Below are positions 16,554 to 23,263 of a DNA stretch of 64,000 nucleotides, piece after piece. Every line of letters starts with the position of its first letter. Within the stretch, counting starts at the first letter, position 1. Below the pieces are notes generated by a model that was given only the letters and a program-made list of their open reading frames with translations, was not told the DNA's origin and did not search any database. A program made the translations under genes and the position numbers. The stretch is from a virus, in IMG/VR virus record IMGVR_UViG_3300028571_000009. One strand, 5' to 3'.

Positions 16554-17303
16554 ATGGCCACGAAAGTAGCAAAAAACAAAGCCGAGTTACAGGATGTATT
16601 AGCCGTAACTATGGCAGATAACCTTAATAAAAAATTTAAGGCAAGTGCGCTTCAAGTAGCTTATTTCCTAGACGGAGACGGTGCCGAATCCCCGAGTGAA
16701 ATCAGGGGTTGGGTATCGACAGGATGTACCACATTGGACCTCGCCATTAGTAATAGACCTAATGGCGGGCTTCCTTTCGGACGGATTGTTGAGATTACTG
16801 GATTAGAAGCATCAGGAAAATCATTATTAGCAGCACACGTATTAGCAAACACCCAGAAGATGGGTGGACTAGGAGTGTTCATTGATACTGAGAACGCATC
16901 ATCAACAGAATTCTTATCAGCCATCGGAGCGAATCTAAAGGAAATGCTTTATGTACCGTTAGAGACTGTTGAAGAGATATTCGAAGCTATTGAAAACATT
17001 ATTGAATCGGTGCGTAAGTCGTCAAAAGACCGTCCGGTAACAATTGTAGTAGATTCAGTAGCAGGTGCAAGTACCAAGGTAGAAATGGCCGCTGAATGGG
17101 ATAAGGATGGTTATAATACAACCAAAGCAATTATCTTATCTAAAGCAATGCGTAAGATTACTAACTTAATTGGACGCGAAAAGATTCTGGTAATTTTTAC
17201 CAATCAATTGCGTTCAAGAATGAATGCACCAGCATTTTCTGACCCATGGTGTGTTGACCCGATATCTACTAAGATAACTATTCGGTATAAAGCACAAGTG
17301 TGA
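16554..17303 (+). CDS. recA: RecA/UvsX N-terminal part fused to 17-aa N-intein
   Basis: GLEASGKS Walker A, FIDTE, VVDSVA, NQLR; ends W-CVDPISTKITIRYKAQV. Confidence 0.9.
   Translation: MATKVAKNKAELQDVLAVTMADNLNKKFKASALQVAYFLDGDGAESPSEIRGWVSTGCTTLDLAISNRPNGGLPFGRIVEITGLEASGKSLLAAHVLANTQKMGGLGVFIDTENASSTEFLSAIGANLKEMLYVPLETVEEIFEAIENIIESVRKSSKDRPVTIVVDSVAGASTKVEMAAEWDKDGYNTTKAIILSKAMRKITNLIGREKILVIFTNQLRSRMNAPAFSDPWCVDPISTKITIRYKAQV
17250..17300 (+). mobile_element. split intein N-fragment (17 aa) in RecA
   Basis: Cys1 start directly after the extein DPW; stop follows. Confidence 0.8.
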
Positions 17304-17337
17304 TGTTTTGACTCCACCGGCTAATATTTATTAGTAT

Positions 17338-18426
17338 ATGACTTATAAACAATTACCGGTGGACTCATTATTAATGGAGTATTTTAATTTCGACATTGAA
17401 TCAAAAGATTCCTCGATTAAAATCAAGGTAAAACTTAAAGATTCTAAAAAGTGTCGAACCGATTTTCCCAAAACACCAAAAGGATTGCCGTACTCCGGGG
17501 TAACTAAGGAATATTTTATCCATTATATCGATGATTATGATACCGCAATTAAAGTATGGACAGCCAGAAAAACGATATGTGCTAAGACTAAATTGATTAA
17601 TTGGTGTATTAATAATCTAGGATTAGATTCTATTACAATAAATAAATTACATACATGCTCAAACGATATATCAACCAAGCTTAGTAATTCACTAAATGCA
17701 CACCATGCAAGCCCCGCAGGTCTTTTGACTAAGGAGAAATTAAAAGCTAGAAGTAAAATATGGGCACCGATAATTGGTCAAATTAATAAGAAAAAATGGG
17801 AAGACCCGGCGTATAGAGAGAAGGTGATGAATATGCGTGAAGATACTGGATTCTACACGGATGTTGTTGAGAAGAATAAAAAATGGATGTCTATACCTGA
17901 GAATAAAGCTAAATTTGTTGAAGCGTGTAATGAACCGGAGCGTAAAAGAAAAATAAGTGAAAGTACATCAAAACGGTGGCATGAATGGATGAAGTATAAT
18001 CCTGAAATAATACGGAGAATAACATACTCTAGCAAAAATAAGCAATACAGTTCTAACGGTATTAAGATGAATAATATCGAATATTTGGTAGCTGAATATC
18101 TAAATGAAATTCATGTTAATTGGATTTCTGAAAAGGTATTTAATTTTGGAAAACACACATACATTCCAGATTTCTACCTACCAGAATTTAATATAGTTAT
18201 TGAATGTTATGGTGATTATTGGCACGCAAACCCTGAAATATTCGATTCAAGTAGAACTATATTCAGGACGCCGGTAACCGTAATTCATGAAAGAAACGAC
18301 CGAAGAAAACATACATTTGAAAGTAACGGATATACGTTTATCCATATATGGGAAAGCGATATTCATAAAAATTTTGAAAATATAAAACAATTAATATGCA
18401 AACAGATTACATTGAAGAAGAAATAA
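17338..18426 (+). CDS. free-standing Vsr/DUF559-like homing endonuclease
   Basis: YIPDFYLPEFNIVIECYGDYWH...IHIWESD; lies between the intein halves. Confidence 0.8.
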   Translation: MTYKQLPVDSLLMEYFNFDIESKDSSIKIKVKLKDSKKCRTDFPKTPKGLPYSGVTKEYFIHYIDDYDTAIKVWTARKTICAKTKLINWCINNLGLDSITINKLHTCSNDISTKLSNSLNAHHASPAGLLTKEKLKARSKIWAPIIGQINKKKWEDPAYREKVMNMREDTGFYTDVVEKNKKWMSIPENKAKFVEACNEPERKRKISESTSKRWHEWMKYNPEIIRRITYSSKNKQYSSNGIKMNNIEYLVAEYLNEIHVNWISEKVFNFGKHTYIPDFYLPEFNIVIECYGDYWHANPEIFDSSRTIFRTPVTVIHERNDRRKHTFESNGYTFIHIWESDIHKNFENIKQLICKQITLKKK

Positions 18427-18767
18427 CATTAGCAGAATTTGCATCTCGATTTCTCGGGGTACAAGACCTAGAGTCGCCGGAGGTTTATGATGTCGGTACA
18501 TTAGGTATTGAGGTAAAAACATTAAATTCTAAAGGTGAAGAAATATTCACACCGATAGAAACGTTCGTAGTAAAAGAACCGGTTTCCGAATATTATACGG
18601 ACGGCAAGATTAAGGTCTCAGCATCGCACCGATTTATCGAATCCGGCAAGGAAGTTTTTGCCAAAGACCATACCGATTTCAAGAAAGTATCGGGTCCGTT
18701 AAATATTGTTGATATAGAAGTTCCTGAATATGCTTCGTTCTTGGCTAACGGTCGGTTAAATCATAAT
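18396..18767 (+). mobile_element. split intein C-fragment in RecA
   Basis: ends His-Asn followed by Thr+1. Confidence 0.8.
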
Positions 18768-19220
18768 ACTACAAGTGGTGGAAAGGCGATTGCATTTCAT
18801 GCTAGTGTCCGTTTACGATTAGCTCCGGTAGGAATGATTAAAGAAAAGCGTCATGGTATTGATGAAGTAGTCGGTATTAAAACACAGGCCAAGGTAGTTA
18901 AGAATCGTATGGGACCACCATTAAGAAAGGTGGAGTATCCGATATATTTTGACCGAGGCATCGATGATGATTTCAGCTTACTAGAAATGCTTAAGAAGTA
19001 TGGTATAGTAAACGGTACATCAGGCAATTACAAATATGTAGATGAATCTACAGGTGAAACGATTCCGTTTAAGACAAAGGACTTCCGCAAAACAATTGTT
19101 GATGACCCTAGGATTAAGGATTTAGTTTACGCTGAATTGTGTGATAAATACATTATGTCGTATAACCCGACTGAACTTACCGATGAGATAGAAGTAGAAA
19201 CTGATTTTGCAGCGGATTAA
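18396..19220 (+). CDS. recA: 124-aa C-intein fused to RecA C-terminal part
   Basis: SASHRF block, VDIEV...FLANGRLNHN|T then TSGGKAIAFHASVRLRL, KNRMGPP. Confidence 0.9.
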   Translation: MQTDYIEEEITLAEFASRFLGVQDLESPEVYDVGTLGIEVKTLNSKGEEIFTPIETFVVKEPVSEYYTDGKIKVSASHRFIESGKEVFAKDHTDFKKVSGPLNIVDIEVPEYASFLANGRLNHNTTSGGKAIAFHASVRLRLAPVGMIKEKRHGIDEVVGIKTQAKVVKNRMGPPLRKVEYPIYFDRGIDDDFSLLEMLKKYGIVNGTSGNYKYVDESTGETIPFKTKDFRKTIVDDPRIKDLVYAELCDKYIMSYNPTELTDEIEVETDFAAD

Positions 19221-19235
19221 ATAAATTAAAAGGTT

Positions 19236-20312
19236 ATGAGTGGTGTACGTGATTATGTTAAATTATTAAGAGAACTTAGACAAGAAAAGGCCGTCGACTC
19301 GGCACCGGATGATAGGGTGCTAATTGTCGACGGCCTTTAGCTCAACAGTTTTATAAGGGTTTTTAGTGCCGTCCCTGTAGTTAATGAAGATGGTGAACAT
19401 ATTGGTGGTGTAACGGGATTCTTAAAGTCAATAGCATTTGTAGTACGTGCGGTACAACCAACTCGATTGGTAATTGTATTTGATGGTAAAGGCGGTTCTG
19501 TTAAGAGACGAGACCTGTATGCTGATTATAAAGCCGGTAGGAAAATTAATACTAAATTCAATCGCCCGGACCATTTAGAAATAAATGTGGAGCAGGAAAT
19601 GATGAATATGCGAAATCAATTATCAAGATTATCTCAGTATCTTGATACCCTTCCTATTACAATATTATCAATTGATAATGTGGAAGCTGATGACATCATT
19701 GCGTATATGACTACCAACGTATTTCATGAATCACGTAAAGTAACTATCATGTCAGATGATAAGGACTTCCTACAATTGATTAATGATAAAGTTTCCGTGT
19801 GGAGACCGGTTACTAAATTAACATATACAGAACAATCTGTGTTTGATAGATTCGGTGTACCGGCATACAATTACATTTTGCTGAAATTATTTATAGGTGA
19901 CTCATCTGATAACATTAAGGGTGTCGACGGTATAGCAGCGAAGACATTATGCAAGTACATTCCGGAAATTACTACCGATAAATTAACCCTGGATGATATC
20001 ATAAAGATTGCGTATGAACGTAATCATGATGCTAAGGTTAAGGTGTATCAAAATATCTTGGATAATGAAAAGTTGCTCCGCCTTAATTACGAGCTTATGC
20101 AATTAGCTGATGTGGACATACCCGGTAATGTAAAAAGTATTACACGTGATATTCTAATGAATCAGGAAATTCCCCCAATTGATAGATTTCAATTTAAGCG
20201 GTTGCTAGCAGAAGACAGAGCCTACAATGTTTTCAAAGACCCTGACGGGTGGCTATTAGATAGTTTCAACTATTTAGCCGGTTATGCAAGTATGCGTAAC
20301 GAGAAGAAATAA
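19236..20312 (+). CDS. 5'-3' exonuclease (T4 RNase H/FEN family) with in-frame TAG at 19338-19340
   Basis: ATG 19236 in frame with track ORF 19467; LIVDGL*LNSF, VFDG, EADDIIA, MSDDKD, GDSSDNIKG. Confidence 0.8.
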
Positions 20313-20318
20313 AATAAC

Positions 20319-20348
20319 TGCATGACTTTTTGGGTCATGCATTTTTTT
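20319..20348 (+). terminator. intrinsic terminator
   Basis: TGCATGAC-7nt-GTCATGCA followed by T7. Confidence 0.8.
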
Positions 20349-20365
20349 CTTTTATATTATAAAAT

Positions 20366-21154
20366 ATGAGTGATAAATTATCAATATTTGGGCACTCGTT
20401 CCAAATAAAAATTATAGCGGCGTTAATGTCCGATAAAATGTATCTGCAACAGATTGCTGATATTATCGAACCGGCATTTTTCGAATCAGAAGCTAACAAT
20501 TGGATAGTAGATACTATCCTAGAGTACTATAAAGAATACAAGGTACCACCGACATTAGATGTATTTAAAACAAAAGCTCTAGAGATTACCAGAGACGTTA
20601 TGAAAATGGCGATTGTAGATTCATTACGTGAAGTGATGAAATACATGGATGCTGATGACCTAGATTACATTAAGAATGAAACCTTAAAATTCTGCAAAAA
20701 TCAATGCATTAAGAGGGCGATTCTAGATTCGGTAGATGCCTTGAAGAAAGGTGATTACGATGTTATCAAAACGAAAATTGATGCCGCACTTAAAGCAGGT
20801 GAACCGGTCTCAACTGGATATGATTATCTATTAAATGTCAAGCAACGATATAATGAAATCAGCAGAAACTGCATTGCAACTCCATGGCCGGTTATAAATG
20901 ATATAGCAGGTGGCGGCTTTGCAAAAGGTGAATTAGTCATCTTAGTTGCAGGTCCCGGCGGAGGTAAATGCGTAGGACCTAGTACTAGTATTGATATTGA
21001 ATATGAAGAATTAGGAATAGAACTTATTTCTAGTGTAGGTACGAAATTTACATTTTGGATTAATCCATATGATACGTATAATATAGATTCGAATGAATTA
21101 TTAGGTTGGCAGGTTATCAAATTCTTAAAAGATACAACCCCTGATGGTGGGTAA
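20366..21154 (+). CDS. DnaB/gp41-like helicase N-terminal part fused to N-intein
   Basis: TPWPVINDIAGGGFAKGEL...AGPGGGK then CVGPST. Confidence 0.9.
   Translation: MSDKLSIFGHSFQIKIIAALMSDKMYLQQIADIIEPAFFESEANNWIVDTILEYYKEYKVPPTLDVFKTKALEITRDVMKMAIVDSLREVMKYMDADDLDYIKNETLKFCKNQCIKRAILDSVDALKKGDYDVIKTKIDAALKAGEPVSTGYDYLLNVKQRYNEISRNCIATPWPVINDIAGGGFAKGELVILVAGPGGGKCVGPSTSIDIEYEELGIELISSVGTKFTFWINPYDTYNIDSNELLGWQVIKFLKDTTPDGG
20969..21151 (+). mobile_element. split intein N-fragment (61 aa) in helicase
   Basis: Cys1 directly after Walker A Lys. Confidence 0.75.
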
Positions 21155-21198
21155 TCTATTTTGTATAATTTTTTACATATTTATATTAAAGTAATTGT

Positions 21199-22122
21199 AT
21201 GGCTAGTGTAAAAGATGCATGGATTAAAAAGTATGGAGTAGATGAAGGTTTACGTAAATGGAATGTATTACGACCCAAATTTAATAGTAACGGTACACCG
21301 CCGGCGGGCAAAAACTGCGTTAAATATTGGACTGATTTAGGATACTCTGATGCGGAAGCTATAAAAGAAGTAAGTAGAGTTCAGCGAGCGCGCAGTCCCA
21401 GATGTGTTGAATATTATAATACGAGGGGTATTTTCGACGAACACATGATTGCAGAAAAGATTTCTGAGTTTCAGCGCCGGCAGTGTCCTAGGTGTATAGA
21501 GTATTATATTCATAGAGGAATAGATATCGAAACCGGTAAGCAACTAATCTATAAAATTCAGTCGGAACGTAGTATTAAATCTTCTAGATTTAATGGAAAA
21601 CGTCATAGTGCATTATCAAAAAGTAAAATGGCTACTGCGACCAGTATACTTAAACGTCAAGAAATAGAGCTATTAGGTAAAGAGGAATGGTTAAAACGCA
21701 ATTTTGGTGATAAAAGTAAAAATAGGGGAAGTTGTATATCAAAGGTTGAGCGGACATTACATACATATGTATTAGACATATGTAGTATTGACTTTGATAT
21801 CACACTGAATAAACAAATTCCCGGTACGACATATATCCCGGATATTACTATTGGTAAAAAAATAATCGAATTTAATGGCGACCGGTGGCACGCCAATCCT
21901 AAAATATATTCGGCTGATATGATATTGAATAAACCAGGTGAACAAAGTGTATCGAAATTATGGGAACGTGATTTAATACGCGAATCAGCATTAAAATCGT
22001 TAGGTTACTCGATTTTAATTGTTTGGGAGTATGATTGGAAACATTCACGTGCTGAATGTGAGATGAAAATTAGAAAATTTATATATGATATTGAAGACAC
22101 GGGTAGTAAAGGAAACGATTAA
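21199..22122 (+). CDS. free-standing Vsr/DUF559-like homing endonuclease
   Basis: YIPDITIGKKIIEFNGDRWHANP...VWEYD; WIKKYG motif. Confidence 0.8.
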   Translation: MASVKDAWIKKYGVDEGLRKWNVLRPKFNSNGTPPAGKNCVKYWTDLGYSDAEAIKEVSRVQRARSPRCVEYYNTRGIFDEHMIAEKISEFQRRQCPRCIEYYIHRGIDIETGKQLIYKIQSERSIKSSRFNGKRHSALSKSKMATATSILKRQEIELLGKEEWLKRNFGDKSKNRGSCISKVERTLHTYVLDICSIDFDITLNKQIPGTTYIPDITIGKKIIEFNGDRWHANPKIYSADMILNKPGEQSVSKLWERDLIRESALKSLGYSILIVWEYDWKHSRAECEMKIRKFIYDIEDTGSKGND

Positions 22123-22495
22123 AATTGGCGAACTATTTAACAAACTTCACATCGATAACTCGGTGGATGCCCAACATCTACCAGATTTTAATATATGGGT
22201 AAAAACTCCGTACGGTAATAAAAAAATAATTAACCTGTTTAGGACTGCCCTACAAGAAACATGCACGTGTTACTTCGGTAATAATAAAACCTTAGTATGT
22301 TCTTTGAAACATTTATTGAAAACTGAGCGAGGTTGGCTTCCGGTTGAATCAATTTGTTCTGACGATATAATTGAAACGGCCTCCGGAACTACCTATTTAA
22401 AATTCTATAAACGACATACCAAACTAGAATCGTTATATGATATATCTGTAGATACTGTTGGATGTTATTATACAAATAATATAGTATCACATAAT
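22085..22495 (+). mobile_element. split intein C-fragment in helicase
   Basis: CSLKH block, terminal His-Asn, Ser+1. Confidence 0.8.
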
Positions 22496-23263
22496 TCCAC
22501 AGCTCTTATGAACATAGGTGCACAGGGATTACGAAAGGGTCTGAATGTAGTATACTTTACCTTAGAGTTATACGAGAATTATATTTCACAACGGTATGAT
22601 GCTATTATCACAGGTATAGCAGCTCAGAATCTAAAATATCACGTAGATGAGATTGAAGCACAGCTGGAAAAGTTACCGGGTAGACTTCTATTACAGTATT
22701 ATCCGACAAAAACGGCATCATGTAATACGTTAAGAGCATATCTCAATAATCTAATTGTCAATGGAACCAAACCGGACATGGTTTTGGTAGATTATGCTGA
22801 CTTATTAAAGACCGCGGGTAGAAGCAAGGATTCGCATCACTTAGACCTGGAAAATATCTACGAAGATTTACGTGGATTGGCAGGTGAATATGAAGTACCG
22901 GTGTACACAGCAAGTCAGGCCGGTAGAGCCGCTGCTGACTCAGAAATTATTAGTGGCGAACAAGTAGCCGGCGCATACGCGAAGATTATGATTGGCGACT
23001 TTGTTATATCGTTATCAAGAAAGGTAACAGATAAAATATCAGGTACCGGTAGATGGCATATTATTAAGAATCGGTTCGGCCCGGACGGATTAACGTTGCC
23101 TAGTAAAATAAATATGAGTAACGGCCAAATGCAAATATTCGAAGAAGCTTCTGTGCAGGGTAAAGAAACACAAAAAACTATGGATAACGGGCAAGAAGTG
23201 CTTAGAAAGACGTTAGCAACTAAATTTAGGGAAATTAACCAAAAACCGGGGGACTTGGGATAG
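22085..23263 (+). CDS. 137-aa C-intein fused to helicase C-terminal part
   Basis: LYDISV...YYTNNIVSHN|S then TALMNIG, YFTLEL, VDYADLL, TASQ, KNRFGPDG. Confidence 0.9.
   Translation: MILKTRVVKETIKIGELFNKLHIDNSVDAQHLPDFNIWVKTPYGNKKIINLFRTALQETCTCYFGNNKTLVCSLKHLLKTERGWLPVESICSDDIIETASGTTYLKFYKRHTKLESLYDISVDTVGCYYTNNIVSHNSTALMNIGAQGLRKGLNVVYFTLELYENYISQRYDAIITGIAAQNLKYHVDEIEAQLEKLPGRLLLQYYPTKTASCNTLRAYLNNLIVNGTKPDMVLVDYADLLKTAGRSKDSHHLDLENIYEDLRGLAGEYEVPVYTASQAGRAAADSEIISGEQVAGAYAKIMIGDFVISLSRKVTDKISGTGRWHIIKNRFGPDGLTLPSKINMSNGQMQIFEEASVQGKETQKTMDNGQEVLRKTLATKFREINQKPGDLG

Follow-up and report, generated by a model that had tools for sequence, protein, structure and literature searches.

The stretch analysed here, 64,000 nucleotides of IMG/VR virus record IMGVR_UViG_3300028571_000009 (hereafter, the window), is AT-rich phage DNA (36% GC) in which nearly all genes lie on the + strand, and it contains a replication module whose genes are arranged as recA-like gene, 5'-3' exonuclease (FEN) gene and helicase gene, an arrangement also found in Microcystis phage Mel-JY01 and in Flavobacterium immuto phages. 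The FEN gene (19236-20312, + strand, as are its parts described in this paragraph) runs from an ATG at 19236 to a TAA at 20310-20312 and consists of 34 codons, an in-frame stop codon, and a further 323 codons. The first open reading frame (ORF1, 19236-19337) reads ...RVLIVDGL at its end, and its last codon, the putative take-off codon CTT (Leu, 19335-19337), stands directly before the stop TAG (19338-19340), which is codon 35 of the gene, the one predicted to be skipped, and is followed by a C. The second open reading frame (ORF2, 19341-20312; 323 codons plus the TAA) begins L-NSFIR, its first codon being the putative landing codon CTC (Leu, 19341-19343). An RNA hairpin (19286-19338) with an outer 13-bp stem (19286-19298/19326-19338) and an inner 6-bp stem (19301-19306/19316-19321) lies over the 3' part of ORF1.

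ORF2 was matched to the Pfam families PF02739 (5_3_exonuc_N; E 2.3e-32, profile positions 12-164) and PF01367 (E 1e-8; 36 bits, slightly below the 40-bit cut-off), and the Taq 5' nuclease, T5 FEN and T4 RNase H are among the PDB matches. As the PF02739 match begins only at profile position 12, the missing start of the domain (hhhVDG) lies at the end of ORF1. The first catalytic motif, hhhVDG-xx-xx-R, which contains the first metal-binding Asp, is distributed over both frames, with VLIVDGL in ORF1 and NSFIR in ORF2, and is continuous only when 6 nt are skipped. The product predicted for such a hop, VDGLNSFIR, is identical to the sequence of uninterrupted relatives (VLIVDGLNSFIR) and keeps a gap-free alignment with the motif LLVDGHHLAYR of the Taq 5' nuclease, whereas a product made by reading through the stop would have two residues more at this place. 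An earlier note on this DNA had pointed to an in-frame TAG flanked by CTT and CTC in an exonuclease gene, which is indeed present at 19335-19343, and to the restoration of the family motif by removal of exactly 6 nt, which is borne out by the gap-free VDG-xx-xx-R alignment with uninterrupted relatives and with Taq polymerase. The perfect 13-bp inverted repeat that it described as ending on the T of the stop was also recovered, the arms AAAGGCCGTCGAC (19286-19298) and GTCGACGGCCTTT (19326-19338) being fully complementary.

The other frames offer no way around the stop. In the window, the +1 frame entered after CUU-U reads AGC TCA ACA GTT TTA TAA and is shut after 6 codons, the -1 frame is shut within 10, and ORF2 offers no in-frame start before a TTG at 19467, 42 codons in. 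Because the +1 and -1 frames close early and ORF2 has no start nearby, only in-frame resumption of translation can give the nuclease. A frameshift of the prfB type would need an open +1 frame encoding the remainder of the protein, and the window has none.

To learn about the distribution of the interrupted gene, a protein-based search of IMG/VR was made with ORF2 as query. This search yielded 54 loci, 49 of them uninterrupted (VLIVDGLNSFIR or DGT-NSFIR) and 5 reading VDGL-stop-LNSFIR, and these five vary in stop (TAG, TAA, TGA) and in landing codon (CTC, CTG, CTA). DNA-pattern scans of IMG/VR and of JGI metagenomes were made with the pattern [IV][IV]DG-YTN-xxx-YTN-N-x-[FY]-x-R, in which the middle codon was left free. 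The hop set comprises 90 loci from numerous independent metagenomes with 49 unique alleles, falling into at least 21 clusters of less than 80% identity, and all of them read DG-Leu-stop-Leu-N. Two further unbiased protein retrievals around distant hop alleles found the insert in 11/80 and 10/80 loci, always as CTN-stop-CTN, including two alleles that had escaped the DNA pattern. Judging by the unbiased retrievals (5/54, 11/80 and 10/80), about 85-90% of related phages lack the insert. No cultured phage with the insert was found; in the most closely related cultured phages, Microcystis phage Mel-JY01 and the Flavobacterium immuto phages, the gene is uninterrupted and has no hairpin. The phage collection contained no near-identical DNA match, and the hop pattern had no match in prokaryote genomes.

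The codons at the interruption follow strict rules. Across the 49 unique alleles the stop is TGA in 24, TAA in 14 and TAG in 11, the take-off codon is CTT in 39, CTC in 6 and CTG in 4, and the landing codon is CTC in 22, CTT in 12, CTG in 8 and CTA in 7. Every one of the 49 has the form CTN-stop-CTN, that is, matched codons flanking an in-frame stop, as both a stop-hop and bypassing of the gene 60 type require. TTA and TTG were found neither as take-off nor as landing codons in the 49 unique alleles, although the YTN pattern permitted them. TTR codons account for 61% of the Leu codons in the same ORFs, which gives a P of about 6e-18 for flanks that are always CTN if the lineages are independent, and uninterrupted alleles frequently have TTA or TTG at the same Leu. 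The preference for CTT at take-off is also marked, with 17/21 clusters against an expected 14% (the share of CTT among Leu codons elsewhere in these genes). When the middle codon was left free, no FEN match in IMG/VR or JGI had a sense codon there, and the matches that did were unrelated chance sequences.

These rules bear directly on the possibility that the stop is read through, with a near-cognate or suppressor tRNA filling it and yielding a FEN with the two-residue insertion DGL-X-LN. Such a reading would be helped by the open frame on either side of a single stop and by the C that follows it, since a stop followed by C is a weak, leaky termination context. All three stops, including UAA, are used at the site, however, so that no single suppressor or change of code fits, and each of the three also terminates normal genes of the window (TAG 10, TGA 10 and TAA 43 of 63 plus-strand ORFs of at least 100 residues), by which a reassignment of stop codons is ruled out; a search of the 64-kb window found no tRNA gene. 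If a protein with DGL-X-LN worked, sense codons in the middle position would be expected to be common, and there are 0 in 49 unique alleles. Readthrough would also lengthen a catalytic motif that otherwise aligns without gaps, and it leaves unexplained the CTN/CTN flanks, the bias to CTT and the register of the hairpin. We regard readthrough as very unlikely.

ORF2 evolves as a coding sequence. Between pairs of hop alleles, the ratio of nonsynonymous to synonymous substitution rates (dN/dS) of ORF2 is 0.05-0.21 at dS values from 0.5 to more than 2, and between the window and locus L001 it is 0.09 at a dS of 2.3. No extra stop or frameshift was found in the complete ORF2s of the 49 unique hop alleles, and in all cases the two ORFs share a frame and lie exactly one stop apart. 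The ORF1 peptides are variable apart from the FEN motif RVLIVDGL, and [IV][IV]DGL at the end of ORF1 is retained with differing codons across lineages. These patterns of substitution indicate that the interrupted FEN gene is a functional gene under purifying selection and no pseudogene.

An inactivated or split gene, in which ORF1 ends at the stop and ORF2 is either an untranslated pseudogene or a separately made protein that assembles with the ORF1 peptide, would not be out of place in a window where the recA-like and helicase genes are fractured by endonucleases and inteins, and gene callers would divide FEN at the stop. Against this stand the strong purifying selection on ORF2 at saturated dS without a frameshift or second stop, the constant single-stop spacing in one frame, the lack of a start near the 5' end of ORF2 (first TTG at 19467), the codon after the stop, which is always CTN, and the lack of intein or extension sequences, all of which make a split or dead gene highly improbable.

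The second conserved element is the hairpin. In the window, the 9-bp core of its outer stem, GCCGTCGAC/GTCGACGGC, ends at 19334, immediately 5' of the take-off codon. RNAfold gave the hairpin -36.3 kcal/mol as compared with -20.2 +/- 3.1 for shuffled sequences (z = -5.1; 0/200 shuffles as good), and its inverted repeat exceeds in length every other perfect spaced one in the 64 kb. The hop lineages all have a stem of 9-18 contiguous bp (two alleles have 7 bp, and two are offset by a closing mismatch), whose 3' arm consists of the I/V-I/V-D-G codons. Among the 36 unique hop alleles of the pattern scans, the 3' end of the stem falls at -1, the last base before take-off, in 17 and between -2 and +3 in 32. 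The arms diverge between lineages yet stay complementary, as in GCCGTCGAC/GTCGACGGC, ACCATCAATGATGAG/CTCATCATTGATGGT, TCCATCCAC/GTGGATGGA and CCCGTCCGC/GTGGACGGG. Plain MAFFT alignment of all hairpins misaligned the 5' arms, the loops being of different length, so covariation was scored on the 13 alleles whose loops were comparable and, for the full set of alleles, with a custom stem search. RNAalifold on the 13 alignable alleles gave 9 pairs, none of them broken, and the closing pair (GC in 7, AU in 3, UA in 2 and CG in 1) tracks the third base of the Gly codon (GGC/GGT/GGA/GGG). Mean minimum free energies are about -27 to -30 kcal/mol for hop alleles, as compared with -8.4 for uninterrupted alleles near the marine L078 group and -13.6 for those near the L056 group, which have no hairpin; nor was a hairpin found in distant cultured relatives. 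Covariation and register strongly support a role of the predicted hairpin as part of the hop signal.

A hairpin at this place could in principle also serve as a processing signal, and the 6 nt might be removed or changed at the level of nucleic acid, through RNA processing or editing, transcriptional slippage or, trivially, an error of assembly, so that the translated mRNA would have no stop. Assembly error and a unique insertion are ruled out by the 90 independent metagenomic loci that have the insert, and there is no homopolymer run on which a polymerase could slip. A-to-I editing cannot rescue UAA in one step and leaves two extra residues, and the matched Leu codons find no explanation at this level. 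We know of no bacterial or phage system that excises 6 nt from mRNA, and consider this possibility extremely improbable.

The FEN gene is thus probably expressed by a programmed +6 stop-hop, from CUU over the stop to CUN. In the mechanism that we propose, a ribosome finishing ORF1 would hold peptidyl-tRNA-Leu at CUU (19335) in its P site, with UAG-C in its A site. The ribosome would then not terminate; the peptidyl-tRNA-Leu would un-pair from CUU and re-pair at CUC (19341-19343), and decoding would resume at AAC 19344, so that nine nucleotides would specify a single Leu and the product would have the normal active-site motif VDGLNSFIR. With CUU in the P site, some 12-15 nt upstream would lie inside the ribosome and, from this geometry, the lower stem would be held open in the mRNA exit channel, while the inner stem-loop (3' end at -14 in the window) would already be able to form at the exit. 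Each nucleotide moved forward would then allow one more GC-rich pair, and zipping of the lower stem as the mRNA emerges may favour forward and block backward movement. The idea that refolding pushes the ribosome fits the register of the stem and published models for gene 60 of phage T4. As a candidate for a Shine-Dalgarno (SD)-like aid, 5-7 nt 5' of the landing codon, we found only the GAYGG of the Asp-Gly codons, with 2-3 possible anti-SD pairs, and this is also present in uninterrupted genes.

The distribution of the insert points to mobility. At least 4 changes of the hop state are required on the ORF2 tree, by which a single origin on the gene tree is ruled out, and three hop alleles are nested in an uninterrupted clade; as the sampling of uninterrupted alleles was confined to the neighbourhoods of three query proteins, the direction of the changes, gain or loss, cannot be set on this tree. 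Near-identical ORF2 backgrounds occur with and without the insert (L034 vs L025; L056 vs L251). In the first of these pairs, L034 has 96.8% DNA identity with the uninterrupted L025 from about 20 nt 3' of the insert onward, and upstream of that recombination breakpoint it has a different type of ORF1 and a gene for 335 residues between recA and FEN. This gene encodes a NUMOD3 motif and a Vsr/MTES_1575-like nuclease domain and is related to the endonuclease that splits the recA-like gene of the window. An intact Vsr-like endonuclease gene adjoins ORF1 in the hop lineages L034, L050, L059, L072, L076 and L134, and decayed remnants lie in the gaps 5' of ORF1 in L079 (331 nt), L080 (182 nt) and L068/L074 (221 nt), which still encode C-terminal Vsr-like fragments, such as ...FNGTFWHRDP... 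and ...IWQAEWESLNK.... These gaps show the endonuclease in various stages of decay next to a hop insert that has been kept. Altogether, an intact or remnant Vsr-like endonuclease adjoins the gene in 10/48 unique hop loci and in 0/123 uninterrupted ones (Fisher 1.5e-6, shared ancestry ignored).

The interspersed occurrence of the insert on the tree and its linkage to the Vsr-like gene indicate an origin in a selfish cassette or in immunity to a nuclease. The insert would have spread as the distal end of a mobile cassette made up of the Vsr-like homing endonuclease gene, the 5' region of FEN and the insert itself, and by interrupting the conserved DGLN-coding target it would let its carrier escape cutting, as in T4 mobA/gene 60. 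Most likely, then, the 6 nt are an immunity insert in the conserved target of the endonuclease, made harmless by the hop, and owe their presence to the cassette and not to a role as regulator. The window, with insert and hairpin and without an adjacent endonuclease, fits a late stage of such a cassette.

A real hop might instead be mainly regulatory, keeping FEN at a low or condition-dependent level, for example by sensing release factor, and not be a by-product of immunity to an endonuclease. The insert and hairpin do persist without a nearby endonuclease in the window and in L001, L037 and L058, and CUU-UGA-C is the release-factor-sensing site of prfB. On the other hand, the great majority of related phages manage without the insert, it comes and goes on near-identical ORF2 backgrounds, and the hop is linked to the Vsr-like endonuclease, for which reasons we think a mainly regulatory role unlikely, although a purely regulatory one is conceivable in lineages that have lost the endonuclease. 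The earlier note had proposed a programmed bypass, signalled by the hairpin, that tunes the level of an Okazaki-fragment nuclease, and had suggested that orthologues be compared for conserved CUN-stop-CUN codons and for covariation in the stem. Both features were found in that comparison, the former in 49/49 unique alleles and the latter in a closing pair that changes between GC, AU, UA and CG with no pair broken. The proposal of a CUU-stop-CUC hop with a hairpin signal is strongly supported by these features together with the use of three stops, the absence of sense variants, the register of the stem and the purifying selection on ORF2. The tuning of nuclease level, by contrast, gained no support; most relatives lack the insert, which is interspersed on the gene tree and linked to a Vsr-like homing endonuclease.

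Several observations weigh against a hairpin-driven hop that arose with an endonuclease cassette. Landing on CTG or CTA after take-off from CTT needs a wobble mismatch for a tRNA with the anticodon GAG, and with a lower stem of 9-10 bp only about 4 bp can form during a 6-nt move, so that the energetic push would be modest. The uninterrupted alleles closest to the window (L003-L054) also have a strong covarying hairpin (mean -25 kcal/mol), which spans about -60 to +8 around the DGL codon, covers GGN CTN AAT (with the Leu and Asn codons) with its 3' arm and has its 3' end at +6/+7 and not at -1, a shift of 7 nt in the 3' direction; a hairpin at this spot is therefore not exclusive to the hop. 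No endonuclease adjoins the FEN gene of the window, and ORFs of HNH type 5' of FEN were not supported as the linked endonuclease, being found also beside the uninterrupted gene of L253. Finally, the P-values overstate independence, as the lineages share ancestry and cassettes. With these points taken into account, we still think it rather probable that the FEN gene holds the first natural, evolutionarily maintained stop-hop, driven by a dedicated 5' hairpin that zips behind the ribosome, and that this hop is the minimal bypass end of a homing-endonuclease cassette, a second, independent and simpler counterpart of T4 mobA/gene 60 across a large family of aquatic T4-like phages.

The junction between recA and FEN holds other genes besides the Vsr-like one. 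In L253 and L264, about 590-690 nt 5' of the FEN start, there is a Cys/His-rich ORF of 209 residues, which was taken as HNH-like and whose homologue in L061 has no Pfam match, and a separate ORF of roughly 196 residues also lies between recA and FEN. Both ORFs occur with uninterrupted (L253, L264) and with hop alleles (L247, L259), which indicates that this junction is a hotspot for mobile genes, in which only the Vsr-like gene tracks the hop.

The genes on either side of FEN in the window are interrupted as well. The recA/UvsX-like gene (16554-19220) is fractured into an N-terminal part (16554-17303; Pfam RecA positions 32-192), a free-standing gene for a Vsr/DUF559-like endonuclease (17338-18426) and an ORF (18396-19220) with an intein-C-like segment ending in ...NHN-T, followed by the C-terminal portion of RecA (Pfam RecA positions 198-262); the relatives L026, L031, L050, L072 and L085 have their recA genes arranged in this way too. 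A terminator-like hairpin of 10 pairs with a T-run (20319-20348, + strand) lies right after the FEN stop codon and before the helicase gene. This DnaB/gp41-like helicase gene (20366-23263) is split likewise, with an N-terminal part (20366-21154) that ends within the Walker A region, a second gene for an endonuclease, here Vsr/MTES_1575-like (21199-22122), and a C-terminal part (22085-23263) with a DnaB_C match. With recA, FEN and helicase all interrupted, three adjacent replication genes would each need post-transcriptional or post-translational repair.

To our knowledge, T4 gene 60 with its homologues has for more than 35 years been essentially the only case of translational bypassing in bacteria or phages. 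The FEN family would provide natural variants of a minimal bypass by the dozen, which between them use three different stops, three codons for take-off and four for landing, and have many covarying hairpins, and these would be open to tests with small reporters that address the release of peptidyl-tRNA, the tolerance of wobble mismatches on landing, and the refolding of mRNA in the exit channel as a driver. If the cassette reading is true, even a catalytic motif can receive an immunity insert from a homing endonuclease without damage to the protein. There is also a practical implication for annotation: these FEN genes come out of gene callers split or truncated, and would be labelled as pseudogenes by annotation pipelines.

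Among known recoding systems, the +1 frameshift in prfB, the gene for release factor 2, takes place at CUU UGA C, where the tRNA re-pairs at the overlapping UUU with the help of an SD-like stimulator. The FEN site would be a 'shifty stop' of the same kind: the P-site tRNA-Leu pairs with CUU, the A site presents a stop that is slow to be decoded and has a C after it, and movement forward is helped by an element upstream. It differs in that its +1 frame closes after 6 codons and only an in-frame landing at +6 gives protein, and in that the proposed stimulator is a hairpin.

A second comparison is with the byps of Magnusiomyces capitatus mitochondria, which, as cited in two papers (PMC5009743 and PMC7026636), are 27-55 nt long and have an internal stem-loop. 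Like the FEN insert, these are short non-coding inserts in essential genes, with matched take-off and landing codons and tolerance of wobble mismatches. Unlike the FEN insert, they belong to a mitochondrial translation system and are not known to have a form of 6 nt with only a stop or a link to an endonuclease.

The closest mechanistic parallel lies in synthetic constructs. Hops of the type CUU-stop-CUN work in E. coli (Weiss, Dunn, Atkins and Gesteland 1987; O'Connor et al. 1989), according to the account of that work in a review (PMC5009743). That 2016 review by Atkins et al. knew of no natural in-frame stop-hop and noted that shorter natural counterparts of bypassing had long been presumed (PMC5009743), and no later description of a natural stop-hop or of bypassing in a FEN gene was found in PMC and bioRxiv up to late 2026. 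The synthetic hops share with the hop proposed for FEN the matched Leu codons CUU...CUN around a stop, the decoding of 9 nt as one amino acid, and a P-site peptidyl-tRNA that re-pairs 6 nt further on. They were, however, engineered lacZ constructs of low efficiency and without a stimulator, whereas the FEN case is natural, conserved across at least 21 lineages, located in an essential catalytic motif and provided with a dedicated covarying 5' hairpin.

T4 gene 60 is the closest parallel in evolution (Huang 1988; Bonocora 2011; Manning and Atkins 2022 preprint). In both genes the codons of take-off and landing are matched and a stop immediately follows the former, and both have the site at about codon 35-46 of an essential replication gene, a short way 3' of a free-standing homing endonuclease gene. 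The insert in gene 60 blocks cleavage by MobA, whose gene lies upstream and decays while the bypass stays, and some of the cassettes have VSR-type enzymes (bioRxiv 10.1101/2022.08.31.505936), so that survival of the insert beyond its endonuclease and an association with VSR-type endonucleases are common to both. Both have a 5' mRNA structure that would refold behind the ribosome; for gene 60, this refolding is held to prevent backward sliding (PMC7026636), and pairing of the exiting mRNA to drive forward bypassing (bioRxiv 10.1101/2024.12.09.627546). The differences are considerable. The FEN gap is 6 nt and not 50 (or 20), it has no take-off stem-loop within the gap that could enter the A site and no clear SD-like landing aid, and as it consists of the stop (3 nt) and the landing codon, no structure can lie inside it. 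No nascent-peptide signal is evident in FEN, the codons are for Leu and not for Gly or Asp, FEN is not a topoisomerase, and there is no sequence homology. The 5' hairpin, moreover, is the most conserved RNA element of the FEN hop, whereas the 5' stem-loop of gene 60 is poorly conserved. The FEN stop-hop thus stands outside the gene 60 family, and its likeness to the gene 60/mobA cassette is an evolutionary one.

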